64,000 nucleotides of DNA from contig OZ024740.1 in the NCBI GenBank assembly GCA_964016885.1, positions 303,800,001-303,864,000 on the forward strand, written 5' to 3'. Position 1 is the first letter of the stretch; each line of letters begins with the position of its first letter. Source of the stretch: Eledone cirrhosa (Eukaryota). Positions 3,882 through 55,232 of the stretch are shown in pieces. The notes under the pieces are model-generated. The model saw only the letters and a list, made by a program, of their open reading frames with translations. It had not been told where the DNA came from and did no database searches. The position numbers were made by a program, and so were the translations under genes.

Positions 3882-6800
3882 CTACAGGCTGATATAGAGA
3901 GAAGGCCCATTCACTCGGGCCATTCTCGCTACTTTCACCCACCTTTCATAAAACTTGCTGGGGTAGAGCACCTCTCTCTCCATTCTGATCCTTCTTCTAA
4001 AGTGGTACTTGAAAAAAAAGACCAGTTGTTGGCCGGAGAAAAGGTGTCTGACCTCAGCCCTTTCAACCTTGTCCACCATACAACTTCTTTCGCCATAGCT
4101 ATCACACAGAGGAAAACTGCCTCTCCATCGTTTTTGAAAGGGGGAGGCGGTTTGATCGTGACAATGTTCTCGGTGGTCAACTGGATTGGTCCCAGCCGCG
4201 ACAGTAGTGGTTCCACATAGCCCCACAGGTCAGCAACGCCCGGGCAGTGTACGAATGCGTGTGCGACGGTTTCCTCGTCACGCACACATCTCGGACAGAT
4301 CTTCTTCGAGGGGTCCCTACCCGGGCGCCCGTGTCTGTAGAGCTTGTCCCGAACGGGTAGAGCTCCTCGGTAACATTGCCAAGCCAGGGATTTTTGGAAG
4401 TTGCCCATCGGTCCCGGGCCAAACGTCCTACCGAACAGACTGGCCAGCTCATCTTCCTCCATGCCCAGCGCCTCTCCGAGAGCGTCGTCGCATTTACTGC
4501 GAACCAACCCTTTATAGAATGTTGAGGTTGAGTCTCCACTGATTGCCGGATCCGCTTGCCAGAGGACCGTGAGCGCCTGGGCACATTCAATGTGCCAGTC
4601 GCCCACTTTTCTCGGTCTTTGCTTGACCCAAGATTGCAGCTCGGTGAGTGAGACGAGTCTCGGAAAGGCTCGCCTCACAAACAGGGCCCACACCGGCTGA
4701 CCGGTGAGGAATACCTGGAGGTGCCGTAGCCTTAATGCGTGTCTACGCATCGTCAGCCACGGCGTCTCCAGCCCTCCGTTCGAAGGGTGTTGACAGCAGA
4801 TGGATCTTCTCACCAAAGGAGCCCGCTTCTTCCAAAGAAATCGGAAGAGTGCGCGCTCCATTTTGGCGAGTGTTTTCTCTGGGCAAGACACGACGGTCAA
4901 GCGGTAGTAGATGACGGACGCTATATAAGCGTTCGCCACCTCCACTCGACCATTCAGGGATAGTTTGCACTCGGCCCACTTCTGGGCGAGTTCAAACACC
5001 TTGCCCGTTACCTCGTCCCAGTTTTTCTCCACCTGGAGGTCCGGTCCGAACCAGACCCCGAGCAGCTTCACCGGTCCCTCCGTCCAGCGTCCGACGATGC
5101 CGTCGGAGGGCATCGTTTTTCCCCTCCACGTCCCGAGTTGCAAACCGACGGACTTGTCCCGGCTCAGCTTGGCTCCTGTGAACCTTTCATATTCCTCCAG
5201 TAAGGTGCCGATCTGCCCGATTTCCGAGGCGCACGACACCATTACTGTCACGTCGTCGGCGTAGGCTGACACCGCTTTCCGCAATCCCGGTTCTAAGGGG
5301 ATGCCCTGCAACAGCTCCAGCTTCCGCAGTAGTGGCTCGAGTGCCAGCACATACAGGAGGGAGGAGAGAGGGCATCCCTGTCGGATGGATCGCGTGATTT
5401 GGAACGGCTCCGAGAGGTAGCCGTTCACCTTGACCCTCGAGCAGGTGTTGCTGCTGTGCATTGCAGCAATCCAGCCACTGAAAACGGGTCCGAAGCCTAC
5501 CGCCGCGAGCACCGCATCCAGGAACCGATGGTCAACCCTATCAAACGCCTTAGATTGATCCAAGTTGATCAGAGCCCCACCAAAGCCGGGTTCGTTCCCT
5601 ACCCTCTCTACGATGTATCGCATGAGGTGGAGGTTGTCGTGTATGGACCTGGACGGGATTGCGCATGTCTGCGCTTCTCCCACCAGGTTCCCGACGACAA
5701 GCGCCAACCTCTTCGCTAACACCTTGGCCAAAATCTTTAACTCTGTGTTTAGCAGAGTTATGGGCCTGAAGTTATCTATGTCATCCCCCTTGTTCTCGTC
5801 CTTCCTCACCAGCGTGACTACGCCCTTGATCACAGAACTGGAAATTCTCCCGTTCTGTTGCCAGTTGCAGTAGACCGCCTCGAGGAGACCGGAGAACAAG
5901 CCCGGCATCGCTACATAAAGTTCGTATGGTAGACCATCGAGACCCGGAGATTTGCGTTTGCCGCATTTGCTCAGCGCTTCCACTATTTTAGCGGCTGAAA
6001 TCGGCCTCTCGCAGGACTTCGCCTCCCCGTCCGAGAGCCGCGCCAGACCGTCGAGGTATGGACCGAAATCCATAGCCCCACTCGGCCCGCCGCCCCGCCC
6101 GAACAGTCGTGCAAAGCGCCGTTGAAAGGCCGCGCTCATACGCTCAGGTTCAAGGATCACGCGTCCATCCTGGTCCTTCAAAGACCGAATCGTGGACTTG
6201 TTTCGACATTTTGCCCCTGTCACTCGGACCCAGCATTGGCTCCCTCGTTACCCAGAGCACGTATTTTACTCCTGACAACGCAGCCCTCGTGCTTCGCATC
6301 AAAGAACTGGTCTAGGGCCGTTCTTGACGCCAGTACGCCGGCCACGTTGCCACTCCTAATCGCCTCTTCTACTCTATTTATTAATTCCCTTTCAGTTCTA
6401 TTCCTATCTGATGCTAATTCCCGACTAAAACCTATCGATTCTATTCTAATTTCTCTCTTGAGAGAGCCCCACCACCTGCTGTTGACAATTTCCCCCGTCA
6501 AACGCTGCTTAACTAGTGGGCTAATCCGCTTACTGTAAGCTTTGTTTGTCGGTAAAGACAAGTTTAGCTTCCAGTAACCGGGTCCCTGTCTATGAGTTCT
6601 ATCAAGGTTGACCACTCCGGTCACCAACTTGTGATCCGAATAGTCAACCATGAACATTCGTGGACAGCTTAATATGTCCCTATCCTTATTTCTAACTAGG
6701 AACCTATCTAGGTACGACCTAGATGTTCCGCTACGATTAGTCCACGTCCACAGTGGCACAGTCGGAAAATCTAGTCGATATCTATCGGCCAGATCAAATC

Positions 6801-7311
6801 TTCCGATTAATCGTTTGAGGCTGTTACACCCCCCTCTATCGGGACATGCCCCTACATAGTCCCAACGTGCATCCAGGATACCATTCCAGTCCCCCACTAA
6901 AAGCAAGGAGCGAGACGTTCCTAGGAAATTCTCCAGGCGTCGGAAGAAGTCCGGTCGCGGTGTCCCAGATGGGGCATACGCTGCCACCAGCCTGAAAGCT
7001 CCACCTTCACCACTGCCGACGTCTAAAACCACCAGTCGACCCTCCGGGTCCAGGTGTACCTTCTGTGTGGCAAGACCCAGGTATTTTCGCAGCAGAACGA
7101 CAACCCCACCCCCACCCCTCGGGTGACAGAGAGATGCGTAGATCTCAAAGTCGTCGAAGATGGGGGCCAGTTGGCGCTCGCTGCTGATCCTGGACTCGCA
7201 AATAACCATTACATCCACTCTGTACAACCTGAGGTCATTTAAGAATTTGCCCTGTTTCCAGGACATCCCCAGGCCGCGTGCATTCACATATCCAACTCTT
7301 ATATTGGCCAT
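3882..7311 (-). pseudogene. Tx1-like ORF2 (apurinic endonuclease + reverse transcriptase + zf-RVT-like motif), frameshifted near 6225 and 4030
   Basis: NARGL, GDWN, SYLDRF and YSDH endonuclease motifs. KSPGLDG, NFRPITLLN, LDQSKAFDRV, RQGCPLS and YADD RT motifs. CPRC..ETVAHAFVHC. C-terminus continues in ORF 3882-4226. Confidence 0.93.
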
Positions 7312-7353
7312 GTTGGTGCTGAAGAGTTAAAAAGGAAGAGAAAAGGAAATTAC

Positions 7354-9159
7354 TTACCTCTTCGTCTCCTGGGGACCAGGCTGCACAATTTCCATGGGGG
7401 TGTTGGAAGGGTTGTTTGGTGGGGTGGTGGTTTGTGGTGGGGTGAGGACATCAGTGTGTGGTGGGGTTAGGGCGTTTGGTTGGGTGTGGGTGTCAGGTGT
7501 GGGGGTGGGGAAACATCGCAATAGGACGTGGTTAAGTGGTTTGGTGCAGTTGGTCCCCACATGCATTGGATGGTTCTTTTTCAAAGTTACATAGGTTTCC
7601 GTTGGGACCCTAATCATCATTAGGTGCGGTTTGTTCGCTGCGTAGGTGAAAGTGATCCCTTCGGTTTCCACCGAAGGGTTATTTTCTATTGCTTTCATCA
7701 AAGTTTTATTGTTCTTGTTAATGTATGTATAGAGTTTTTGTTGTGTTGTGTTTGTTTTTGTTTGTTGTTCTTGTGCGTGTTTGCGTTTTGTAGTATGTGT
7801 TATGTTTTGGGGAGGGGTGGGTTTTTTTGTTTGTTCTGTTTGTTCTGTTTGTGCTGGTGGTTGTGTTTGTAGTATTTTTTTGTTAATGTGGTGCTTTTTT
7901 TTTTCCTTTTCACCTGTTGAAAGGGTTCTCCTTCGTCGTCACTGGGTGACGTTGATACGGAGTCCTCTTCCGTGTTGTTGGGGAGGGGTATATTTTGGGG
8001 TTTTGTTGTGGTTGCTTTTGTATTTGTTTTAGGTGGGGAGGGGTTGGGTGGAACAGTGTTTTGTATTGTTATTTTTCCGTGTTGTTGTGGTTGTTGTTGT
8101 TGTGGTGGTGGTGGTGGTGGTTGTGTTGTTGTGTTCGGGGTTGGCAGAAGAGCCTTTTTTTTTACTCGTTAATTGAGGACAGGCAGCCCTCAGGTGACCC
8201 CTACTTAAGCAGTGGTAACATGACGGCCGCCTTCCCTCCACTGAAATGTTTATATAAGTTAGCCCGTCCAGAGGCACGCGTTGTGGGATATTCGCTATTC
8301 GTTCTGGGCTCATTTGCACCAGAACTTCTACGCTGATCCCACCAAATACACATCCGGAGGACTTTCCTATTGAAATTATCTTGTCTTCATCAAAGTCAAT
8401 GATTCCACATAGTATCCACCAAATATTTACATTTGGTGTGATACTCATTATTTTTATTCTTTGTGTCCTTTTTCCCCTGTATGTGGGGAAAAAGGTGAAG
8501 CGGGGGGACACAATGGGTGATACGGAGTACTTTTGTGCTGTTGACTGGTTGTTCATTAGCACCGAAATGCTACCAAACAGTTTACCCTTTTGTATGAAGG
8601 TTATGTCCTTCATTGCATCTTGTAGAACCAGCTCAATTTCATTTTGTGATAATTGAGCTGGTTTTCCTGTTTCGTTCGATATTGTCCTGAAAACCACAGT
8701 TTTCAGGACAGCCTCTCTACGTAATTCCTGTGGAGAATGGATGCTAAAAGCACCGTTTTCGCCAAAAGTCACGAATTGTTTTGCGTCTTGTAATAGTTGT
8801 TTAGCATTTGTTATGTCTATTGGCGTGTATAGTTCGTTTTTTTTTACAGTCTGTGCGAATGTTGTTTTGGTGTTGTTGTCTTTTATGTTGCTGCTGTTGT
8901 TGTCACTGTTGGTAATATTGTTCATATTTTCCTTGGTGTTGCTATTGTTGCAGTTGTTGGTTGTGGTGTTACTGTCATTGTTCTTGTTGTTGGTGCTGGT
9001 ATTATTTACCGGGTTTGGTTTCGTGGTTTCAATATTTTCAACGTTTTTCGATAATGCGAGGGGGGAAGGCTGCAAGCTTTGTACTCCTACCTTCCCTCCA
9101 CCACTTTTCTTAGTGGGCGTGGCACTCACGACAGTGTGCGAGGTGGAAATGGCATCCAT
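7354..9159 (-). pseudogene. Tx1-like ORF1 (gag-like, zinc knuckle), broken by frameshifts in A homopolymers
   Basis: CYHCLSRGHLRAAC knuckle and Asn/Thr-rich regions. A frame change at the T-run near 8155-8164 restores KKALLPTP...DDEGEPFQQVKRKK. C-terminal part is in ORF 7354-7701. Confidence 0.8.
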
Positions 9160-9360
9160 TGCTGACTACCAAGTCTACACAGTTTTGAGATGAAAATGAA
9201 AATTTCGCCCCAGAAAGGGGCGAAAATTAGTTGACTCAACGTCTGAAGGCCCAGGCAAGGGGTTAAACTAAACAATGCTATTAAATTGAGCAATTAACTC
9301 ACAGTTTCTTTTACAATAATCCGTAAAAGTCCGGAGCGAAGTAATTCACGTCTATATCAA

Positions 9361-10784: not shown

Positions 10785-11450
10785 TATTAGTGCTTGTTGT
10801 GAGGGTGACGGATTGGTAGAATTGGTAGAGCGTTGGACAACATGCTTTGCAGCATAGAGTTACGGCCCTTTACGGTCTGAGTTAAATCCCGCCGAGTTTA
10901 ACTTTGCCTTTCATTCTTACGGGGTCGATAAAATAAAGCATCAGTAACGTACTGGGTCGATTTAATCGACTTTCCCCGCCCCCAAAATTACTGGCCTTGT
11001 GCCTATACTAGAAATCATTGTTAGTGCTTGTTGTAAGGGTGAGGAATTGGTAGAGGGTCGGACCACATGCTTTACATCCCTTTACGTTCTGAATTCAAAT
11101 CCCACCGAGATTAGCTTTGCCGTTCATCCTTGCAGTGTCGATAAAATAAAGTACCAGTCACGCACTGAGGTCAGTTTAATCGAATATCCTCTCTACTAAA
11201 ATTACTGACCTTGTGTCTAACTCAGAAACCATTATTAGTGCTTGCTGTAAGGTGAATTGGCAGTATCGGTAGAGCGTCCCTTTACGTTTTAAGTTCAAAT
11301 GCCATCAAGTTTTGCTTTGCCTTTCATCCTTATGAGCTCGATAAAATAAAGTACAAATAACGCACTGGGGTCGATTTAATCGACTTTCCCCTTCCTTTCA
11401 AATTGCTGGTCTTGTGCTAAATTCATGAACTATTATAAGTGCTTGCTGTA
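10785..11450 (+). repeat. Head-to-tail tandem cluster of 3 diverged SINE A copies (about 200-230 bp period)
   Basis: Units each begin attagtgcttg(t/c)tgt(g/a)agg at about 10785, 11018, 11233; a fourth junction at 11434. Confidence 0.8.
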
Positions 11451-17601: not shown

Positions 17602-17648
<47 letters not shown>

Positions 17649-17887
17649 CAATATATTTAGAAACACACAGATACATGCGGACACACACATATACATGAAT
17701 GCATCCACACCCAACTATGAGTTAAGGGTGCCAACCTCACCGATGTTGCTCAATGAATGACTGGGACAGACCAATCCGGTTGAACCAGACTGAACCAGTA
17801 TCAGAGTTAAAAATACATTATGAAGAGAGAAGAAACATTTAGATATAATTAGTAATAAAATGTATCATACCTAAACTGTTCCTAGAT

Positions 17888-17977
17888 TCCTCGACTACGT
17901 AGTTTCGTGGCATAAACAAAAACAATACATCATAAAGATATAGAGTCCTTGCGAGGTCTGCCGACTTATCAAGAGGA
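17888..17977 (-). ncRNA. Type I hammerhead ribozyme, U3-A8 core variant, copy 1
   Basis: - strand: UCCUC-UUGAUAA-GUCGGCA...UGCCAC-GAA-ACUACGUAGU-C^GAGGA. Stems I, II and III all pair; GUC cleavage triplet. Confidence 0.8.
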
Positions 17978-18480
17978 TACCTCATTTTACTAGCCTCAAG
18001 AACGCGTCTACACGACGTGAGAAAGAATCCCAAAAGGAGGAGGGGGAGATAGTCACGCGATATAACGGTCGAGAAACAGAGCTAAGCCTCTTATAACCCC
18101 GAAGAAAATACCACGGAGGCAGAGGGGGTATTTATATCGAAGCCGTAGAAGAGGTGGTGAAGGAGGCGAGAAGTATGAGTAATGGCAGCTTTCCAGCAGT
18201 CACCACACTTCAAAGATTACTCAACCAGAGGGAGTTATTAACAATATATTTAGAAACACACAGATACATGCGGACACACACATATACATGAATGCATCCA
18301 CACCCAACCGTGAGTTAAGGGTGCCAACCTCACCGATGTTGCTCAATGAATGACTGGGACAGACCAATCCGGTTGAACCAGACTGAACCAGTATCAGAGT
18401 TAAAAATACATTATGAAGAGAGAAGAAACATTTAGATATAATTAGTAATAAAATGTATCATACCTAAACTGTTCCTAGAT

Positions 18481-18570
18481 TCCTCGACTACGTAGTTTCG
18501 TGGCATAAACAAAAACAATACATCATAAAGATATAGAGTCCTTGCGAGGTCTGCCGACTTATCAAGAGGA
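18481..18570 (-). ncRNA. Type I hammerhead ribozyme, copy 2
   Basis: Same motif, +593. Confidence 0.8.
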
Positions 18571-19073
18571 TACCTTATTTTACTAGCCTCAAGAACGCGT
18601 CTACACGACGTGAGAAAGAATCCCAAAAGGCGGAGGGGGAGATAGTCACGCGATATAACGGTCGAGAAACAAAGCTAAGCCTCTTATAACCCCGAAGAAA
18701 ATACCACGGAGGCGGAGGGGGTATTTATATCGAAGCCGTAGAAGAGGTGGTGAAGGAGGCGAGAAGTATGAGTAATGGCAGCTTTCCAGCAGTCACCACA
18801 CTTCAAAGATTACTCAACCAGAGGGAGTTATTAACAATATATTTAGAAACACACAGATACATGCGGACACACACATATACATGAATGCATCCACACCCAA
18901 CCGTGAGTTAAGGGTGCCAACCTCACCGATGTTGCTCAATGAATGACTGGGACAGACCAATCCGGTTGAACCAGACTGAACCAGTATCAGAGTTAAAAAT
19001 ACATTATGAAGAGAGAAGAAACATTTAGATATAATTAGTAATAAAATGTATCATACCTAAACTGTTCCTAGAT

Positions 19074-19163
19074 TCCTCGACTACGTAGTTTCGTGGCATA
19101 AACAAAAACAATACATCATAAAGATATAGAGTCCTTGCGAGGTCTGCCGACTTATCAAGAGGA
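19074..19163 (-). ncRNA. Type I hammerhead ribozyme, copy 3
   Basis: Same motif, +1186. Confidence 0.8.
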
Positions 19164-19666
19164 TACCTCATTTTACTAGCCTCAAGAACGCGTCTACACG
19201 ACGTGAGAAAGAATCCCAAAAGGCGGAGGGGGAGATAGTCACGCGATATAACGGTCGAGAAACAAAGCTAAGCCTCTTATAACCCCGAGGAAAATACCAC
19301 GGAGGCGGAGGGGGTATTTATATCGAAGCCGTAGAAGAGGTGGTGAAGGAGGCGAGAAGTATGAGTAATGGCAGCTTTCCAGCAGTCACCACACTTCAAA
19401 GATTACTCAACCAGAGGGAGTTATTAACAATATATTTAGAAACACACAGATACATGCGGACACACACATATACATGAATGCATCCACACCCAACCGTGAG
19501 TTAAGGGTGCCAACCTCACCGATGTTGCTCAATGAATGACTGGGACAGACCAATCCGGTTGAACCAGACTGAACCAGTATCAGAGTTAAAAATACATTAT
19601 GAAGAGAGAAGAAACATTTAGATATAATTAGTAATAAAATGTATCATACCTAAACTGTTCCTAGAT

Positions 19667-19756
19667 TCCTCGACTACGTAGTTTCGTGGCATAAACAAAA
19701 ACAATACATCATAAAGATATAGAGTCCTTGCGAGGTCTGCCGACTTATCAAGAGGA
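19667..19756 (-). ncRNA. Type I hammerhead ribozyme, copy 4
   Basis: Same motif, +1779. Confidence 0.8.
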
Positions 19757-20517
19757 TACCTTATTTTACTAGCCTCAAGAACGCGTCTACACGACGTGAG
19801 AAAGAATCCCAAAAGGCGGAGGGGGAGATAGTCACGCGATATAACGGTCGAGAAACAAAGCTAAGCCTCTTATAACCCCGAAGAAAATACCACGGAGGCG
19901 GAGGGGGTATTTATATCGAAGCCGTAGAAGAGGTGGTGAAGGAGGCGAGAAGTATGAGTAATGGCAGCTTTCCAGCAGTCACCACACTTCAAAGATTACT
20001 CAACCAGAGGGAGTTATTAACAATATATTTAGAAACACACAGATACATGCGGACACACACATATACATGAATGCATCCACACCCAACCGTGAGTTAAGGG
20101 TGCCAACCTCACCGATGTTGCTCAATGAATGACTGGGACAGACCAATCCGGTTGAACTAGACTGAACCAGTATCAGAGTTAAAAATACATTATGAAGAGA
20201 GAAGAAACATTTAGATATAATTAGTAATAAAATGTATCATATATATATCATAAAACATGTCTATAGAATCACAAGATAAAATATATACTATTTCCTCTCC
20301 CAATTAGCATAATTAACTATATAAAAAAATCGAATAGACCAGGCTATACGAATGAGGCTTCTATGAAGGAATCTCCAACAAATAACCAAAACTAGCGCTT
20401 CGCGTCGGCTGTAGTGGAATATTTATCGAATATTTCGACAGCGTAATCGCCTAGATACAGTCAACTAAGCAGAATTAGATTTAAAATAAACTAGGAGAAA
20501 ATAGAATACATTTAAAT

Positions 20518-20856: not shown

Positions 20857-21683
<827 letters not shown>

Positions 21684-21730
21684 CACACATATATATATTT
21701 AACGAAGGGTATTATTTAGTAAGAAGTAGT

Positions 21731-23825
21731 TATAGCGAGCATACTGGGTGAAATGGGTAGCAACAAAACGAGACATGGTTTGTGTATATAATATTTAATT
21801 AACGGTAGATAGAATACTTGACATGTCAAAGATAGATGTTAGAATGAAACAAAGTTAGTAGTTACCGTTTTGATTGCCAGGCAAACGCGGCTGGCAGAGG
21901 GCGCCTGGCTAAGGCCAGGCGCCTGTTGGCCAAATTAATGGCAGAGCCAAATGAGAGGCTCTTGTCCTGGTGCCGAAAAGGCAAAGAGAGAAAGGAAGCT
22001 TAAAGTTGTTAGTTTTATAGGGCTCTGACCGGAAGTCGCAGAAAGGGTTCCACCTCCCGTCTAGATCCCAATCAAAACAAGGGAGACAACCGCTACATAA
22101 CCTCCCGCCAGAATTTTAGTGTATAAAAATCGAAATGAAAATATGTAGCAAGTTGGCGAGAATGTTGTAACAGGCATGAAAATTACGACAAAAGAATGTT
22201 TGGAAAAATCAATGATAGATATCAAGGTAGCCAACCGCTCTTGGCCAGAGAACGACTGGACATCCATCTATCCATCACCCAAAGATACAATGTAATAAAG
22301 TAAAAGTAATAGAAGAGCTCAAAGTTCAAAATATAGTTCACAGGTGTGCAATCACATGACAGCAGGAAAGAAAGTGTGTTCCAGAGAATGAATGCAGGTG
22401 GTTTCTGTTCTGTGGTATATCGTGAAATTTCCAACCTCCGAATGGATTTTCTCACAGGAAGAGTGCTGCAAAAATGAATTCTCTGGCTTTGGTGAAGCTG
22501 TATTGATGTATTGCTGTTGCTGCTGCTGTTGTCTCGCTGAGTGAGCGTATTCGGTGTTTAAATTCACAGTAAAAAAAAATTATTTAGAAAAAATGAGTTG
22601 CGCAAAGTGCTAGAAATAGCAGCCGAAGTTGATGGTCGATGTTGAGAATGCGTTGACCTGGAAGGGTCAAGAGGCCAGCGACCAGAGAAATAAGCATTCT
22701 TAATAAATGCGCGGTTATCAACTGTAAATTTACATTGTAAATTTATAAACCGGCAAATAGAAGAATATAGCTTAAGGCTGAAGAATCCCTGGTGATAAAT
22801 GGCGTGCGGCTGTCTGTGAGTAGAGACATCTCTGTGAATCGAGAATTTGTGCTGCCTACACGTGCCAATACAAGGTTGAAAAAAAATAATATTTCTAACG
22901 CGCGAGAAAATGATAGTGCAATGTTGAAAGTGACAATGATGAAAAAGAAAGGCTTCAATCAGCATAATTATTGGTGTGAACTTTGGGGAAAAAAAAAAAA
23001 AAATTGAACGATGAAGAAAACGATGAACAAAAAGGCAATGGTTCATCGAAAATAAATGTTCCTGTTGAAATGTTATTTAAAGAATATCAAATTTCTTTTT
23101 TTTTTTTTGTGTTTTGAAAGAGTTCGTTGTAAGAAACGAGAAACATATATATATATATATATATCGTGAAATGTTTTTTTTTTGTTTTGAAAGTGTTCGT
23201 TGTAAGAAACGAGAAACATATATATATATATTGGTGAAATGCGACAGTTAATTGATGCGTGAGAGAAAAAGTATGTCTGTGCGAATTCCACATGTGCGTG
23301 TGTGCATGTCCTTGAGTAGTTTCATTGTTTGTCGCTAAATTTGCTGTGTATTCGTAATGTTACTCACAAAACCAGATGTGCTATTTTTTTCTTTTTTTGG
23401 GGGGGTGACCACTTATAGCGATGAACGGCTGCGTGTTCGTATCACGTCAGGGTTACCAATATAGCGAGGATACTGGGTTGTATGAATGTAACAAAACGAG
23501 ACATGGTTTGTGTATATAATATTTAATTAACGGTAGATAGAATAATTGACATGTCAAAGATAGATGTTAGAATGAAACAAAGTTAGTAGTTACCGTTTTG
23601 ATTGCCAGGCAAACGCGGCTGGCAGAGGGCGCCTGGCTAAGGCCAGGCGCCTGTTGGCCAAATTAATGGCAGAGCCAAATGAGAGGCTCTTGTCCTGGTG
23701 CCGAAAAGGCAAAGAGAGAAAGGAAGCTTAAAGTTGTTAGTTTTATAGGGCTCTGACCGGAAGTCGCAGAAAGGGTTCCACCTCCCGTCTAGATCCCAAT
23801 CAAAACAAGGGAGACAACCGCTACA
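21731..23825 (-). mobile_element. Non-autonomous LTR retroelement (TRIM/LARD-like), LTRs 21731-22097 and 23460-23825
   Basis: About 366-bp direct repeats (TGTAGCG...CGCTATA on - strand), 4-bp TSD tagt, PPT ggcgggagg, tRNA-Trp-type PBS, non-coding interior. Confidence 0.9.
23427..23458 (+). pseudogene. 3'-terminal 32 nt of tRNA-Trp including CCA, at the LTR/PBS junction
   Basis: ggctgcgtgttcgtatcacgtcagggttacca versus metazoan tRNA-Trp 3' end as recalled, GGCTGCGTGTTCGAATCACGTCGGGGTCACCA (3 differences). Confidence 0.8.
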
Positions 23826-24147
23826 TAGTTATTGTTAGATGAGGTAACAAGATTATTAGATGAAATAACAAGAATGGCTGAGTTAGTTTATATATAAAGG
23901 TTTACTTCACTTGAGTCAAAAAGAAGAATAAACATGAGTCAAAAAGAACAATAAACATGTTAACACGTGTTGCGATGGTTGACAATGTTATGTTTGTTGT
24001 TGATGTGAAAACAGCGAACGACCAGATAAAATGTGTTGGTGGTTAAAGTTTGTTGCAGTCCCTCGTAGTAGTTCTCGTCCTGAGTCTATGACCATAGTGA
24101 GAGAGAGAAAGTAATGGTTTGTATACCTCTGAATGGTCTGTAGATGA

Positions 24148-25164: not shown

Positions 25165-25244
<80 letters not shown>

Positions 25245-25248
<4 letters not shown>

Positions 25249-25909
25249 AGTTAATATAAATTAATATATGATAAACACAAAAGTGTTTGTATTGTAAAAG
25301 ACGAAGTTAGCTAGAATGAAATAAACTAATTCAAATAAATATATATAGTTTGCCTGTCTCGATTTAAAATAATAAATCAATAAAAACAAACCCATATTGG
25401 CAAATAGCCGTGATACCTGGACAAATTTAAATTTTAAAATCCAAACCTGTTCCGTATAAACGGGTGTTATTTCTAGCGCCATGAATATGAGATAGCTAGT
25501 GAGCTGGAAAACCTCGTGCAAAACCTCGTGCGTTTGCGCTAGTGAACCAGACCTCCTAAATTATTTCTCCTAAATTATTTCGAGGTGAAACATCCTAATT
25601 TTTCTGGATACCTGTTGAGAAGCACAGAAAATTGGAATATTTCACTTTTTATACTATCGTTGCGAAACTTATTTGGGTTTTGAAATTCAAATTTATCTGC
25701 GGAACAGGTTTGGATTTTAAAATTTAAATTTGTCCAGGTATCACGGTTATTTGCCAATATGGGTTTGTTTTTATTGATTTATTATTTTAAATCGAGACAG
25801 GAAAACTATATATATTTATTTGAATTAGTTTATTTCATTCTAGCAAACTTCGTCTTTTACAATACAAACACTTTTGTGTTTATCATATATTAATTTATAT
25901 TAACTTGTA
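25245..25909. repeat. Fold-back cassette: about 210-bp inverted arms, about 245-bp spacer
   Basis: tacaagttaatataaa...ccaaacctgttccg versus cggaacaggtttgg...tttatattaacttgta. Confidence 0.9.
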
Positions 25910-26312
25910 TTTCACGACTCAGAAATGCTTCTTTCTTTGAGATAATTAATTGTAAAGAACTGTTTGAGTTTTTAACTCTAAATATAATATTATATATATA
26001 TATATATATATATAGTAATAATAATAAATGTGAAGACTAAAATATATATATATATATTTTGATAAATATATATGTATATATAATGCCAATGATTGTAAGT
26101 TTGAATCTGGCGTGCAAATACATATATATATCTTATTTTGTTTGACCCGTTTAGCTTGTTCGCTTTTTTGGCTCTGGTGGTTAATGGCTTCGTAACCATC
26201 GTCTCAGTTTGTATGACCTTTTTAACTTATGTTTATAGCTCTGGTATCTTCATATCCATGGAGCGCTTGTCTACACAATACAGAAGTTGCGCCGAAATGC
26301 GATTCTCGCTAA

Positions 26313-26376
<64 letters not shown>

Positions 26377-26384
<8 letters not shown>

Positions 26385-26717
26385 AGATCAAAAGATGGTT
26401 AAAGGAGTTCCATGTATTTTATTATGCGCATTTCAAAAACAAACATCATCATGCAATAATATTTGTGTTTTCATCAGATAAAACAGGAGAACATGATATG
26501 AAGGCTAAAAAACACTTGTGGATAGTGGAGTTTTAAATCAACAAATCATATGTTGATTTAAAACTGCACCATCCACAAGTGTTTTTTAGCCTTCATATCA
26601 TGTTCTCCTGTTTTATCTGATGAAAACACAAATATTATTGCATGATGATGTTTGTTTTTGAAATGCGCATAATAAAATACATGGAACTCCTTTAACCATC
26701 TTTTGATCTTATATTAT
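26377..26717. repeat. Near-perfect palindrome: about 167-bp arms, 7-nt loop
   Basis: ataatataagatcaaaag...aaatcaaca | aatcata | tgttgattt...cttttgatcttatattat. Confidence 0.92.
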
Positions 26718-26800
26718 GTATACTCCAGTCCTACAAACTGTAGAGTGCTTCTTATCCGATATCTGCATTGCTTTATTGTACTACAATAAAACTCACCTCC

Positions 26801-28899: not shown

Positions 28900-30129
28900 A
28901 TGTCGTCCCACTGCATCGTCATGCCTCACCATGCCGCATCCATGCTCTGTCAGCCACCATGCCCTCCCCTACCCTCTCCCTTACCCGCACGACTTGGTCC
29001 TTCACGAGTGCCATGGTTTACCATGCGGAATCCCTGCAACCGTCAATCCCGGCCATCTCCCTTCCCTGCACGCTGTCGTCCCACTGCATCGTCATGCATC
29101 ACCATGCCGCATCAATGCTCTGTCAGCCGCCATCCCCTCCTTGGCCCTTTCTTTTTCCTGCCCGCAGTGCTCCTTCAAGACTGCCATGGATCACCATGCG
29201 GCATCCTTGCCACCGTCCACCCCTGCCCTCTCCCTTGCCTGCTGGCCGTCGCCCCACTACATCTTCATGCCTCAGGATGCCGCCTCCATGCACTGTCAGC
29301 CACCATCCCATCCTCGGCCCTTTCTTTTGCCTGACCGCCGTGCTCCTTCAAGACTCCCATGGCTATCTATGCCGCATCAATTCCTTGCCACCCGCTTAAA
29401 CGTCATCAGTATGGCTTATTGTTGCCTCATTTGATCACCGATGTTCGCAGGCTAAACACAATACCAGCGTGTACGATAGTCCATGGTAAATCTTTTTAAT
29501 TACATGTTCTTGAGGCTGTTGCAAAGGGCAATAACCCTAGACGCAATTTTGATCAACTTTTTTTCACATATAGCAAATTTACCGGGACAGGTCTTTAGCT
29601 ACTCAAATCTACTTCAGAGGTCACGCGTTCATGTAAAAAATCAATAAAACTGAAGCGGGGGTTCGACTTTGCGCAAAAAACAAGGCAAAGTTGCAGATGG
29701 GATAATTTTTTACAGGAACGTCCGATTTTCGTGAAAACTGTCACAAATGAATCGTCCATTAGGCCACGATTCAGATAAAGTCCCTTTTATTTCTTCTTCT
29801 GCACATGTGAGCGCCAAAATTGTAAAAAAAAAAAAAAATATTTGAAAAAATCGACTTTTTCACCCTGCTTTAAAAATCAACTGAAAATTCAATTTCAAGT
29901 GAATTTGACTTCCGTCAGTCTTGCAAAGAACTATTTCAACGATACACTCTGAACCTACAATTGATCCATTATTTATGCTCAATTACACACCTGCGTATAC
30001 TAACCTCTGTTTTTTTCCTTGAGGTTCGAAGGTTTTTGTACCTGTGATGCGCGGGAAGTAACTTTCAAACATTTTAACAACAGACCAAAGTTCGACTTAC
30101 ACCCGGGCAACGCCGGGTACGTCTGCTAG
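28393..30129 (+). mobile_element. Non-autonomous Helitron with internal microsatellite and GC-rich about 170-bp degenerate triplication (28900-29400)
   Basis: 5' TCttatatataaa; 3' hairpin cccgggcaacgccggg then CTAG; inserted between A and T. Confidence 0.8.
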
Positions 30130-30513
30130 TATATATATAAATATACACACATTCGCTATTATTAGAGTTACGGTCCTTTATAGTCTGAGTTCAAATCCTG
30201 CCGAGGTTAACTTTGCTTTTCATCCTTACGGGGTCGATAAAATAAAGTACCAGTAATACACTGGGATAATTGCTGGCCTTGTGCCAATAGTAGAAACAAT
30301 TATTATAGTTGATATTGGATTGGCAGTATCGGTAGAGCGTCGGACACTATACTTTGGTGCATAGACTTATGGCCCTTTGCGTTTTGAGTTCAAATCCACC
30401 CGATCTTAGCTTTGCCTTTCATCCTTATGGGGTCGATAAAATAAAGCATCAGTAAATCACTGGGGTAATTGCTGGTCTTGTGCCAAAAGTAGAAACAATT
30501 ATTATAGTTGATA

Positions 30514-35179: not shown

Positions 35180-38100
35180 CGCGGACCATCAAAAACCAGT
35201 GAGATCTGCAGGGTTAATGTGTTATCTTGAACGGTTGCCAATCTACATCTGCGGGAAAATACGTCTTCTAGGCGGATTATACACTGTGTCTAATGCTGTA
35301 TCTATGAGAGGTGACATACACAATATGTGTGAGTCAGGCGTGCTTGAGCAGGATGAAACAACTAGCTCAGAGAAGCAGAAGACCCTATAGCAGCGATAGA
35401 AAAGGCAGAGGAGACAACATGTTTGTAGGACAGATATTAAAGTGTGTTGGTGAACGACTTCATAAAAACCAGTCATGTGACTTTTTATGTGGTCGAGCTT
35501 GTCCCACGTGTGAGAGTGGTATTCTATTGTAAGTTTTACCTGAGCTTTGTGAAGTAGTTTGGGGGTCTGAGGTATTTTTCTGGCTCTGAAAAAGAAGGCC
35601 AGTCTTTGTGGTAAAGTCTTTGCTTCGTTGAGGATGTGCATTCGCCAGGAAAGATCCTCATTTGTAGTAACCTTGAGGGTTCTAGTTGCATGCTGTTCGT
35701 GTTTAAGATGTGATCATGTTTTCTTTATGTGTGTAGTGATTGTGACTTTATGATGTTGAAGGAAACAAGATCGATATAACTTCATTTAAGTATGCTTCCT
35801 TGGCTTCTGTTCGTGGATTCAGTGCAGGTTCGGTGTAAGATGTATAACAAAACACTGGTGTGTATGAATATAACAAAAGTCTCAGTTGTGTGTATAAAGT
35901 TTAATTAACAAGTTGAAGTTATGTAGAATAGTATAGTTGACATGTCCATGAGTAGATGAAAGAATGAAGTAAAGTTATTTGTTACCGTTTTGAAGTTAGC
36001 TCGCAAGAGACCATGTTAGGGTTGCCAGGCGAACGCGCCTGGCCGAAGACGCCAGGCCGAAGGGCCAAGCAGGTTAGAAGAGGGCAAATGAGAGGGAGAG
36101 AGCTGAAAGTTATTCCCTTTATAGGGTCCCAGAACGGAAGTGACAGAAAGGGTTCTGCCACCCCAACGGGAAGTAACTCCAGCTACTTCCTGTCTAGAGA
36201 TCGGTGATGTGATTGTCATAACAAGGGAGGCAACTCTTGCTACATTATCTCCCGCCAGATTTTTAAAATATAAAAATCGAATGAACCATGTATGGAGTAA
36301 GATGGCGAGCATGTAACACCAAAGTCCAGGCATGAAAATTACGAAAAAAATTATGTTTGCAATAAAAGGAAAACAGCAAAATATATGCATGCAAAAATCA
36401 ATGATAGATATCAAGGTAGCCAACCGCTCTTGGTCAGAGAGCGACTGGACATCTATCTATCCATCACTCAAAGATACAATGTAATCAAAGTAAAAGAAGA
36501 GGTCAAAGTTCAAATGTTCAAAATTCAGTTCACAAGTGTGCAATCACATGACAGCAGGAAAGAAAGTGTGTCATCCAGAGAATGTATGCAGGTGGTCGGT
36601 AGACTGTGGTACAACGTGAAAATCGGTGGGATTTTCTCACAGGAAGAGTGCTGCAAAAATATATTCTCTGTTTTGTTCTGCTGGTTTTGGTTGTTGATGT
36701 TGTTGTCTCGCGGAGTGAGCGTATTCGATGTTTCCGTTCACAGTGAAATCTTTCCCAGAAAAAATGAGTTGCGCAAAGTGCTAGAAATAACAGCCACAGT
36801 TGATGGTCGATGTTGAGAATGCGTTGACCTGGAAGGGTCAAGAGGCCAGCAACCAAAGAAATAAGCATTCTGAATAAATGCGCAGTTTTCAACGGCAAAT
36901 TTACGAGGTAAATTTTTAAACCGGCAAATAGGAGAATATAGCTTAAGGCTGGAGAATCCTTGGCAAGAAACATTATCTATGGCGTGTGTTATCTCGGTGA
37001 GTCGAGATGTGTGCTCCCCACACGTGCCGAAACAAGGTTAAAGTCAAGTTGAAAAAAAAATATTTCTATTGCGCGAGAAAATGGCGCGAAAATGATAGTG
37101 CAACAGGTCGTTGGCAGCCATTTTGAAAAATTTGTGTGTGAACGTGATAATATGATAAAAAAGAAAGAAAGGCTTCACTTGGTATAACAAATATGGCGAG
37201 TTCGATTTTTTTTGTGAACGATGAAAAAAAGCTTGGTGGAAAGAATAAGCAATAGTTGAGATTCAGCAAAAATAAATGTTCATGTTGAAATGTGTAAAAA
37301 AAATAATATTTATTTATTTATTTATTTTTTAAAGTGTTCGTTGTAAGAAGAAATGAAAAACATATATATACATCCAGTGGAATGCGACACATAATTCATG
37401 TGCGACACGTGCGTGAAAGGCAAAATTTTCTGTTTATTTTGCTTGCTGAGAAAAAATTTCTTTTTTGATGTTTTCGTTATAAGACAGTGTATGTGGAGAG
37501 AAATCCTTGTCTAAGGAGGTCGGAGGGATTTCTTAGTCCGAAAAAAAAATATCACGTCGGGTGAGAGAAGAAGAGTCTGTCTGAATGAGAATTTCACATG
37601 TGCGTGTGTTCGTTTCTGTGTCTGCGTATTTTTCCTAATTTGTTAATAAAGTTTGCTGCGTATTCGAAATGTTAGTCGACACCTTCCAACGAAAATGGGG
37701 TACTGCTAATTAATTTTTTTATATATATTCACACAACACCAGATCCTATCATTTTTTTCTTTTTTCGGGGTCACCACTTATAACAAAATACTGGTGTGTA
37801 TGAATATAACAAAAGTCTCAGTTGTGTGTATAAAGTTTAATTAACAAGTTGAAGTTATGTAGAATAGTATAGTTGACATGTCCATGAGTAGATGAAAGAA
37901 TGAAGTAAAGTCATTTGTTACCGTTTTGAAGTTAGCTCGCAAGAGACCATGTTAGGGTTGCCAGGCGAACGCGCCTGGCCGAAGACGCCTGGCCGAAGAG
38001 CCAGGCAGGTTAGAAGAGGGCAAATGAGAGGGAGAGAGCTGAAAGTTATTCCCTTTATAGGGTCCCAGAACGGAAGTGACAGAAAGGGTTCTGCCACCCC

Positions 38101-38950
38101 AACGGGAAGTAACTCCAGCTACTTCCTGTCTAGAGATCGGTGATGTGATTGTCATAACAAGAGAGGCAACTCTTGCTACAGATGTATAGATTGTATGTGG
38201 ATGACGCTTAGATACAGAAGGTTGGGAGAAATAAAGGGTGACATCCTATGTGTAAGAATTAACGTTGTTGGGGATGGCGACAAGTAGGCTGTTGATATAT
38301 TAGTGGAAGATTGTGTAGTACAAAACTGAAGCTTGGGCCACAACTGTGTTGATAACGTAAGAAGAAGCTTCAGTGGGACATTCCATAATTGTGCGATCTT
38401 ACATGAAGCCACCGATCAAAACAACGAGAGGTAGACACCTTTTATTTGGAAATCTACGTGTTAGGTACGGTGTAATGCTTTGCTGTACAACAATACTGGT
38501 TTCACTTAATTTCTCTAAGATGACGATCCATTAGTGAGTAACATGAGTAGGTTTTCACTATCTCTGACTTTACAAAATATGTACTTCTAGTCACTAAGGG
38601 TGGAGATTTAATGTGTTAGAGATGATTGTTGTTAACAACTGTATATCTCTTTTGAAATATTGGGAGTACGATAAAATGATAGTTATCAGAATCAGAAAGG
38701 TTGCCTCTTTTTGGAGTGGAACACACCACGGCGTGTATCTAAACATTGAAATATGCATATGGAGAGAAAGCGAAGGATAGGGAGATTAAAGAGATTGATT
38801 ACGATACGGCTAGCTCTGAGATAAATTGTTTTAGGGTAATAGAAAGGACATTGTCAGGGCTGATAGATGTGTCAGTTTGAAGTGACCGGGGTGCTTTCGT
38901 ATTTGGTGTGTATGTAAATGTGATGATGGCGTCTTGTGGAATGGAGAGGG
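35180..38950 (-). mobile_element. Highly decayed LINE (CR1/L2/Jockey group), interrupted by the LTR element at 35843-38180
   Basis: LLHKAQVKLTIEYHSHTWD resembles the LYKAQVRPxLEYCSxxW post-RT motif; flanks join across the TSD. Confidence 0.5.
35843..38180 (-). mobile_element. Second non-autonomous LTR retroelement of the same family, LTRs 35843-36244 and 37779-38180
   Basis: 402-bp direct repeats with about 6 differences, TSD gatg, PBS TGGTGACCCCGA (37765-37776), PPT ggcgggaga; interior homologous to 22100-23400. Confidence 0.92.
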
Positions 38951-54132: not shown

Positions 54133-55232
54133 GTTTGTTAATGCTTCTTTTTCCAATATCTATGGTTTTTATGCCAATTTTGTGAGTTTAATTTGAATAA
54201 GATTTCTGTTTTCAAAAAAATATATACCACTTCAAAAAATATATATATACAGGATGTTTATGAAAAACATTTGAGAGCTTTTTGCTATAAAGTTTTAAGG
54301 CTGTAACCAACGTCACACACCTAACCCCAACAAATGCAAGAGGAAGTGTTTCTTGCTCCTTAGCAAAAGTAGGGCGATATCTAGTTGTGATAAATGCTAA
54401 ACAGTGAGAAACAACACGTTGTCGATTACTTCCCTTTGCATTTGCTGACGTTAGGTGTGACATTGGTTGGTTACCACCTTAAAAATTCTTAGCGAATGGT
54501 TCTCAAATATTTTTCATAAATATCCCGTATATTATTCAATATATGATACATAAAATGTCTGGCAACTGATTTGGTAGACACCCACAAGATTATTAACCAT
54601 CTTTCCAACAACAACCCTGAACACCTTTTTGAATTCCATGTGTCTAACACCCATGGACATGATTACAAAATCAGAAAGCAGTACAGCTCCCATGACTTTC
54701 AGAAACATTTTTTCATGCTCAGAGTTGCTGAAGCATGGAACAAACTACCTGCACTAGTTGTTAGTTGTTGGGACACTGCATCCTTCAAAACTTCCATGCT
54801 TCCCAAAATTCTCCAACATTACACCTGATATTCCCTCTCCATACACATGCATGCATGTGTGTGTCTGTGTGTATATCATGACTCATACACTTTTCACTTT
54901 CCTGACATTTTACATTATTCTATGTACTATACATGCACATTTGATGAGTTGTAGTGCACCTGAGTACTGTACACAATAATTTTCATTATTATTATTACTA
55001 TTTTGTTTATAATAGGGTGGTGGATTGACAGTATCGGTAGAGGGTTGGACGCCATGTTTTGCAGCATAGAGTTACGGCCCTTTATGATCTGAGTTCAAAT
55101 CCCATTGAGGTTAACTTTGCTTTTCATCCTTACGAGGTCGATAAAATAAAGTACCAGTAATGCACTGGGATAATTGCTGGCCTTGTGCCAAAAGTAGAAA
55201 CGATTATTATTATTTTGTTTGTTTGTTTTCAG

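Follow-up and report, generated by a model that had tools for sequence, protein, structure and literature searches.

The window element and its insert

The DNA analysed here, called the window, is a stretch of 64,000 nucleotides (nt) of the Eledone cirrhosa genome (assembly GCA_964016885.1, contig OZ024740.1, positions 303,800,001 to 303,864,000). Its minus strand carries a long terminal repeat (LTR) retrotransposon of about 2.1 kb that holds, beside its 5′ LTR, a 32-nt copy of the 3′ part of tRNA-Trp, and the origin and role of this insert are the subject of the present study. With two LTRs inside a target-site duplication (TSD), a site where the primer binds (primer-binding site, PBS) as well as a polypurine tract, and with no gag or pol, the window element is by its features a non-autonomous LTR retrotransposon (Table 1); a coding remnant was absent from its internal region, which is 77% identical to a sister element at 36216-37083. 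The two LTRs are 97.6% identical; of the nine positions at which they differ, eight fall in the first 45 nt of the U5 tip.

Table 1. Features of the LTR element in the window (window coordinates)
Feature	Positions	Strand	Basis
4-bp TSD TAGT, left	21727..21730	.	sequence
3′ LTR, 367 nt, TGTA...TATA, free of tRNA copy	21731..22097	-	sequence comparison
Polypurine tract CTGGCGGGAGGTTA, adjoining the 3′ LTR	22098..22111	-	sequence and position
Non-coding internal region, ~1.3 kb	22112..23401	-	longest open reading frame 170 aa, no Pfam match
Original short tRNA-Trp PBS ggggtgacca, now mutated	23402..23411	-	intact in insert-less relatives
Original 2-nt spacer ct (23412-23413) and duplicated U5 tip	23412..23426	-	sequence
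Duplicated U5 tip: tatagcga, probably extended by tgaac	23414-23421, 23422-23426	-	sequence
32-nt DNA copy of tRNA-Trp 45-76 with CCA, likely working PBS	23427..23458	-	match to the genome's tRNA-Trp
1-nt spacer (a), LTR to captured PBS	23459..23459	-	sequence
5′ LTR, 366 nt	23460..23825	-	sequence comparison
4-bp TSD TAGT, right	23826..23829	.	sequence

The 32-nt copy reads in tRNA sense on the plus strand, the element itself lying on the minus strand, and the spacer between copy and LTR, 1 nt here, is a 2-nt CT in the oldest copies of the family described below. The short PBS, the tip tatagcga, the CCA-ended copy and the LTR start at 23460 all lie where an earlier reading of the letters alone (the sequence-only reading) had placed them; however, the short PBS that it called normal is itself mutated (C72>G at 23407, plus C66>G). 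The linker tgaac resembles the LTR-tip variants tataacaatgtact and tataacaatgaact, and the duplicated tip probably runs beyond 8 nt, on through tgaac; if tgaac is counted as tip, a GG overlap is left with G45-G46 of the tRNA.

A pre-capture comparison is available inside the window in the form of the sister non-coding LTR element at 35839-38184 (LTRs 35843 to ~36245 and 37779-38180, TSD GATG), in which the ancestral 11-nt PBS cggggtcacca is intact at 37766-37776 and no insert is present. Its internal sequence atcacgtcggg (37551-37561) is identical to tRNA-Trp positions 59-69 and so begins at the canonical stop of plus-strand synthesis; it is possibly an older captured 18-nt PBS. Of 30 related loci, only two were flagged for a motif resembling it.

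Comparison with the tRNA-Trp genes

A tRNA-Trp gene of this genome (locus L093, tRNA-Trp(CCA) by ARAGORN) with CCA added served as reference, replacing the tRNA sequence on which the sequence-only reading relied. Aligned to it, as that reading had advised, the fragment matches positions 45-76 with three mismatches, A58>T (23440), G67>A (23449) and C72>T (23454), so that the reported T58 stands while its status as sole substitution does not. The tRNA-Trp genes, found by pattern search and confirmed by ARAGORN, comprise two tandem arrays (G000:C4:277.40-277.45 Mb and C4:353.39-353.49 Mb) and some single genes; in the second array A57 prevails and a single copy (L252) has T58. Position 58 is A in 45 of the 46 gene copies in 12 fetched loci and G in one degenerate copy, and none of these 46 encodes CCA. 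An exact search for non-A58 sequences with upstream tRNA context returned seven matches, six of them LTR-adjacent captures and the seventh the gene L252. The search for a genomic T58 or an encoded CCA thus gave no CCA and one T58 gene, which is a near miss rather than an identical gene or short interspersed nuclear element (SINE), since it has A57 and lacks CCA.

Because the insert ends in CCA and none of the 46 gene copies does, it is, judged by that end, a DNA copy of mature tRNA-Trp. Two features expected of a copy of a mature, modified tRNA were found, namely a CCA absent from the genes and a mismatch, absent from the matching genes, at a site that would be modified on the Watson-Crick face. 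The insert is neither a tRNA gene nor a tRNA-derived SINE: it lacks a 5′ half, A box, cloverleaf and SINE body, its tRNA match ending at position 45; ARAGORN called no tRNA in the window, and an Rfam scan of 21600-24000 gave low-complexity matches only and no tRNA.

Size and history of the family

An 18-nt core of the insert has 685 matches in G000 and its reversed control has none, so the matches are not due to chance. All but 129 carry T58, leaving 556, and in the first 30 loci every T58 match had the family junction. Exact matches to the family haplotypes number 478 and divide by positions 67/72 into A/T (359), A/C (42), G/C (71) and G/T (6). Eight family copies lack T58, all of them C58, and A58 was found in no family copy. 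The insert is an inherited family trait of about 500 copies; the family survey that the sequence-only reading had proposed therefore speaks for inheritance and not for a one-off accident. Thirteen of the 71 G/C haplotypes lie in one tandem array (G000:C14:21.37-21.46 Mb), where 13 family junctions with tRNA-perfect 3′ ends stand mostly 4-6 kb apart, a tandem amplification.

Older relatives with the CT spacer were sought by PBS plus LTR tip, yielding 103 matches, mostly insert-less (30 loci fetched, 29 distinct); two of the 29 distinct loci hold the insert, both with T58. A midpoint-rooted tree of 80 two-LTR copies was based on the body of the 3′ LTR together with the internal region; the PBS zone and tip were excluded, one short copy was omitted and 19 junctions were skipped at extraction. 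Six long-branch copies form a clade (support 100/100) in which the old PBS is intact or nearly so, the tip is of the TATAACA type seen in insert-less relatives and the spacer is mostly the 2-nt CT; their 3′ end is tRNA-perfect or near-perfect, with T58 in five and C58 in one, and with C47 in five of the six. The age of this clade rests on the characters that it has in common with insert-less relatives. Outside it, the old PBS is mutated at 72 in all tree copies. On these characters T58 is ancestral to the insert, and since the oldest clade combines T58 or C58 with a near-intact old PBS, capture with T58 likely came first, the old PBS decaying and A67/T72 arising afterwards.

Contigs from sequencing run X1 cover the insert together with the LTR and show no alternative letter at 58. 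Run X6, from a different organism, gave two short low-depth contigs over the tRNA part with other flanks, apparently a separate capture; contigs of run X5 had no match, and those of X7 matched the LTR only. The U5 tip is hypervariable: 41 young copies hold 36 (5′) and 31 (3′) distinct 32-mers there, versus 11-19 in six other LTR windows.

Which site primes

Priming at the inner, short site would copy the insert to the 3′ end of the element. In 71 of the 81 two-LTR elements the 3′ LTR ends directly on a 4-bp TSD, and no tRNA-like sequence was found inside these 71 TSD-bounded 3′ LTRs. The other ten comprise L209 with the whole unit at its 3′ end, L137 with a 9-nt primer copy and eight without tRNA sequence; in L209 the duplicated tip served as the integrated end (TSD CTCA). 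Doubled units of tip and primer occur in L209, L229, L235, L237, L027 and L137. Within the derived lineage the old PBS has not been repaired, whereas the LTR-adjacent copy has gone back toward the tRNA many times: copies with the tRNA-perfect state turn up in various young clades, which takes 16 changes on the tree (well-supported branches force at least nine), and restoration is polar, with 72 restored alone 42 times, 67 alone six times and 58 never. Such polarity is expected of repair by a primer copy that stops before 58.

Since 3′ LTRs end on the TSD, the old PBS is mutated and positions 67 and 72 revert in young copies, the captured LTR-adjacent copy is likely the working PBS, and the old short PBS is likely no longer the main priming site. 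This reverses the roles given to the two sites in the sequence-only reading, where the insert lay passively in front of a short PBS that still worked. The retention of short PBS, spacer and duplicated tip in nearly all copies agrees with that arrangement, and L209 shows that the inner site can prime, but the insert was carried to the 3′ end in only 1 of 81 elements and it is the short PBS that remained mutated and unrepaired while its neighbour reverted, so that a passive insert is scarcely credible.

Reversion of the PBS is accompanied by identity of the LTR tips. Two or more differences within the first 45 nt of U5 were found in 21 of 38 A/T copies and 5 of 10 A/C copies but in none of the 18 derived G/C copies (Fisher's test of A/T versus derived G/C, p 2e-5; p 0.001 with old G/C copies included, 3/23), where the A/T copies were mostly first matches on C1 and the G/C and A/C copies were picked from haplotype lists. 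Mean pairwise tip distances, compared to see which LTR carries the new tip changes, are alike (5′ A/T 3.94, 3′ A/T 3.47, G/C 3.45). We infer that PBS and tip would both derive from one strong-stop DNA where the 5′ end is set by a plus strand templated on the tRNA, and that otherwise both would derive from the RNA template. With eight differences in the tip and one elsewhere, the window copy would be of the RNA-templated kind.

Routine re-templating by fresh read-through, from a different isodecoder, was also considered, having been suggested by the occurrence of T47 only with tRNA-perfect 3′ ends (22 of 22 matches). It was rejected, as tips or junctions of the old type are present in four of the five T47 family loci, C58 is common to the fifth and the locus next to it, and A58 is absent from every family copy. 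At L147 and L148 the LTR end of another element, with a primer copy of exactly 18 nt (76-59), stands back-to-back with the family insert through a GAT overlap; this 18-nt copy shows the canonical stop.

A possible addition to this picture is that the long PBS, or its mismatches T58, A67 and T72, would be under selection, either through deeper T-arm pairing that tolerates read-through or through mismatches that blunt silencing by 3′ tRNA fragments. Several observations lean this way: the 478 exact insert-bearing matches outnumber the 103 mostly insert-less older CT-spacer junctions, A67/T72 still makes up 359 of the 478 despite one-way reversion, long PBSs are kept by at least three coding families as well, and escape from silencing has been argued for mouse ETn/MusD elements (PMC7472051). 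However, a few A67/T72 source copies would explain the excess without selection, and with A58 in no copy routine read-through is not visible in the family. We consider selection an unlikely, though not far-fetched, supplement.

Other primer captures and coding relatives

The T58 of the family is one event, so a footprint of tRNA modification has to be sought in other captures. Eukaryotic tRNA-Trp carries 1-methylguanosine at position 37 (m1G37), N2,N2-dimethylguanosine at 26 (m2,2G26) and 1-methyladenosine at 58 (m1A58), and by eukaryotic conservation A58 of the tRNA-Trp of this organism would be methylated too. In HIV-1, m1A58 is the signal that ends plus-strand strong-stop DNA (PMC8599865); m1A causes arrest of reverse transcriptase (RT) and misincorporation, dATP included (PMC4787781), and RT stops at m1G37 and m2,2G26 in general (PMC8062790).

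Positions 43-76 with CCA were matched, with at most one mismatch, at 29 places, 13 perfectly and 16 with a single mismatch, which falls at 58 in five (two T, two C and one G). The enrichment at 58 over 32 scoreable sites is significant (binomial p 1e-4, 0.003 corrected), with the limit that three of the 29 captures belong to one family and hence not all are independent. To delimit capture events, 63 non-gene junctions were clustered by their flanks into 33 clusters and merged by eye into 29 events. Capture ends lie at 35-41 in 19 events, at 27-30 in five and at 43-46 in five, with none of the 29 at 31-34 or below 27, in a search whose patterns favour long captures and are blind to ends above 49. 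Clusters of ends thus stand near positions 38, 45 and 28, in keeping with blocks at G37, G26 and the base of the anticodon stem. At three fold-back junctions (L254, L065 and L249) inverted LTR tips enclose a tRNA copy that reaches to 27-28 or 38; both arms of L254 carry the copy, each with T58, and L065 has C37 and C58.

Coding tRNA-Trp-primed Gypsy elements are also present in this genome, with a DUF7041 Gag, a protease, an RT and the motif CX2HX9CX3C. One family of 21 loci (including L062, L071, L204 and L207; family B hereafter) has tRNA-Trp 45-76 as PBS, with T47 and with A58 in all loci but one, which has G58; this PBS lies 26 nt ahead of an ATG that is in frame with gag. Two more families of the CHCC type have inherited primer copies reaching to 37-41 (L099, L107, L177 and L184; L064, L075, L087 and L097), and among copies of the former, positions 47 (C/T) and 58 (A/T) vary. 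At least three coding families thus retain over-long primer copies as PBS.

Origin of the insert and proposed cycle

We consider it probable, at roughly three in four, that the 32-nt tRNA-Trp copy of the family was made once, by read-through of a methylated A58 with a wrong base, and that it is now likely the PBS. The proposal of the sequence-only reading, read-through of m1A58 followed by aberrant strand transfer, thereby remains the best account of how the insert originated, backed by the CCA end, A58 in 45 of 46 gene copies and the enrichment of mismatches at 58 in other captures; its scale and the roles of the two PBSs are what had to be revised.

In the founder, plus-strand strong-stop DNA would have run past 58, with dA placed opposite (read as T58), and halted at 45, the foot of the anticodon stem. 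Unable to pair with the 11-nt PBS, the over-long strand may have jumped, by means of the GG overlap, onto the U5 tip where a minus strand ended, which would have duplicated tip, spacer and PBS. The family then amplified to about 500 copies, during which the old PBS mutated and the new one gained A67/T72. In the routine cycle proposed, priming would occur at the LTR-adjacent copy and plus-strand synthesis would normally stop before 58, as the polymorphism suggests. In a minority of insertions the tRNA-templated strand would win, so that C72 and G67 return and the LTR tips are identical; in the majority the strand copied from RNA would prevail, with A67/T72 kept and the tips often unequal. The enzymes are likely borrowed from CsRn1-clade Gypsy elements with the same primer.

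Several points weigh against this account. The family T58 is a single founding event, and a point mutation among positions 45-58 would fall on 58 about 1 time in 14. Thirteen of the 18 other captures read A58 correctly, and family B, with the same 45-76 PBS, has A58 in 20 of its 21 loci; the dependence among captures and the search bias given above reduce the weight of the footprint. The clear preference for dATP (PMC4787781) is for m1A followed by U, and here A follows. The tRNA-Trp gene L252 in the C4 array has T58, with A57 and without CCA, and could be the source of some A57-T58 captures. The A/C class is mixed, five of its ten copies having unequal tips, and an A67/C72 tRNA gene (L083) exists. 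The helper element would be identified only through shared primer, TSD length and similar LTR ends.

The first of these points suit an alternative in which read-through made the over-long copy with 58 copied correctly, T58 being an ordinary point mutation of the founder that was then amplified. One founding event, the prevalence of A58 in other captures and family B, and the later fixation of two more PBS mutations, A67 and T72, all agree with it. However, no family copy has A58, the oldest clade included, 58 is the sole hot spot among single mismatches elsewhere (5 of 16, with three different bases), and A>T is a transversion; we regard an ordinary mutation as improbable, though not negligible.

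A second alternative has the insert copied from a pre-existing sequence, namely a T58 gene, a SINE of tRNA origin or, if templates were switched inside a particle common to both elements, the PBS of family B, which codes for proteins and is of CsRn1 type. It draws on the existence of L252 and on the long 32-nt PBS of family B, which also ends exactly at 45. It is very improbable: L252 has A57 and no CCA, while the family copies examined have G57; family B has T47 with A58, while the oldest copies of the window family mostly have C47 (5 of 6) and never A58; no bases of family B are found past the junction; unrelated single captures end at 45 and 46 as well (L084 and L080); and the T58 loci read have no SINE context.

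Beyond this single origin by miscoding read-through, a broader reading, which we hold as evenly balanced, would take the genome as a fossil record in which dozens of over-copies stop where m1G37, m2,2G26 and the anticodon stem would block RT and miscode at m1A58, one of them having become the primer site of a 500-copy family whose mismatches mark two routes of second-strand transfer. As part of the same evenly balanced reading, one route would be retrovirus-like, with the PBS rewritten from the tRNA and identical LTRs, and the other Ty-like, with the PBS kept and LTRs unequal at birth.

Comparison with known systems

The CsRn1 clade is marked by the Gag motif CX2HX9CX3C, a tRNA-Trp PBS and a 4-bp TSD (PMC2582038). 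As in its members PwRn1 and AgCR, the window element has a tRNA-Trp PBS and a 4-bp TSD (the latter in 71 of 81 family copies); unlike them, it encodes no Gag and hence no CX2HX9CX3C. Because it has no coding capacity, it is likely a dependent of the clade rather than a member. The text passages of PMC2582038 contain no 32-nt PBS, the PBS alignment being a supplementary image.

DNA copies of tRNAs at LTRs are known as isolated cases: tRNA-Gly between the LTRs of a Moloney murine leukaemia virus (MLV) circle (Colicelli and Goff 1986, as described in PMC12220202) and a tRNA-Gly cDNA adjoining an HIV provirus (PMC12220202). In these as in the window element, a CCA-ended DNA copy of a mature tRNA abuts the U5 end of an LTR. 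The viral cases, as described there, are single somatic or episomal events in which a tRNA other than the cognate one sits at the outer end, whereas in the window family the copy is of the cognate primer, stands beside the PBS end of the LTR, has become fixed in the germ line with about 500-fold amplification and has a substitution at 58. The routine HIV-1 stop one base before 58 (PMC8599865) parallels the failure of the family ever to restore 58. In HIV-1, however, read-through past 54 gives a cDNA unable to transfer or integrate (PMC8599865), whereas here a mis-transfer would have rescued one such cDNA, which founded a family.

In mouse ETn/MusD most copies likewise have two PBS mismatches, with perfect PBSs scattered on the tree (PMC7472051), and these have been suggested to be reversions by primer copying (PMC7472051). 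In those mouse elements the mismatches do not coincide with modified positions of the tRNA and the PBS has its usual length, whereas one mismatch here lies on such a position and reversion goes together with identical LTR tips. In Ty1 and Ty3 the PBS is strictly inherited (PMC7472051), the primer sequence not being inherited in plus-strand transfer (PMC5371799). Most insertions of the window family similarly keep the parental PBS, but inheritance is not strict, as 113 of 478 copies (71 G/C and 42 A/C) are nearer the tRNA, many of them in young clades.

The Helenus, Cassandra and Ajax terminal-repeat retrotransposons in miniature (TRIMs) are also non-autonomous LTR elements with sequence derived from small RNAs, and animal Helenus elements have 4-bp TSDs and Gypsy-like PBSs (PMC10886601). 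In TRIMs the tRNA or 5S sequence lies within both LTRs and supplies an RNA polymerase III promoter (PMC10886601), whereas in the window element of ~2.1 kb the tRNA copy lies outside the LTR at the PBS, is antisense on the element RNA and is a 3′ fragment with CCA; the element does not belong to Helenus/TRIMp3. A literature search, mostly of papers available without subscription, brought up no amplified family whose PBS is described as an over-copied primer.

Implications

Read-through of m1A58 is usually deemed a dead end for a retroelement; in this genome a successful family appears to go back to it, and it offers one concrete way in which a PBS can be replaced. The present analysis adds the succession of steps, evidence for priming at the captured copy and the coupling of PBS reversion with identical tips. 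The frozen mismatches act as a test within the genome of whether a Gypsy-type PBS is inherited from the tRNA or from the element's own RNA, a question settled mainly in yeast. The same mismatches link this choice to differences between 5′ and 3′ LTRs that arise at insertion, and such differences would inflate LTR-based dating (in the window element, eight of nine differences fall within 45 nt). If the pattern of stops and mismatches holds, tRNA modification sites may be inferable from the assemblies of animals without tRNA sequencing.

Other features of the window

A tandem array of 593-bp units, ~99% identical, occupies 17646-20317. Long near-perfect inverted repeats with arms of 118-211 nt, resembling miniature inverted-repeat transposable elements or fold-back elements, lie at 20858-21532, 25244-25910 and 26372-26722. 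On the minus strand of 3935-9165, long open frames of 770, 368, 194 and 378 aa (stop to stop) probably belong to a coding mobile element. A dispersed SINE-like repeat with the B-box-like motif GTTCAAATCC is present in about ten copies, among them 1281-1464, 10853-11392, 30120-30502 and 55024-55207.

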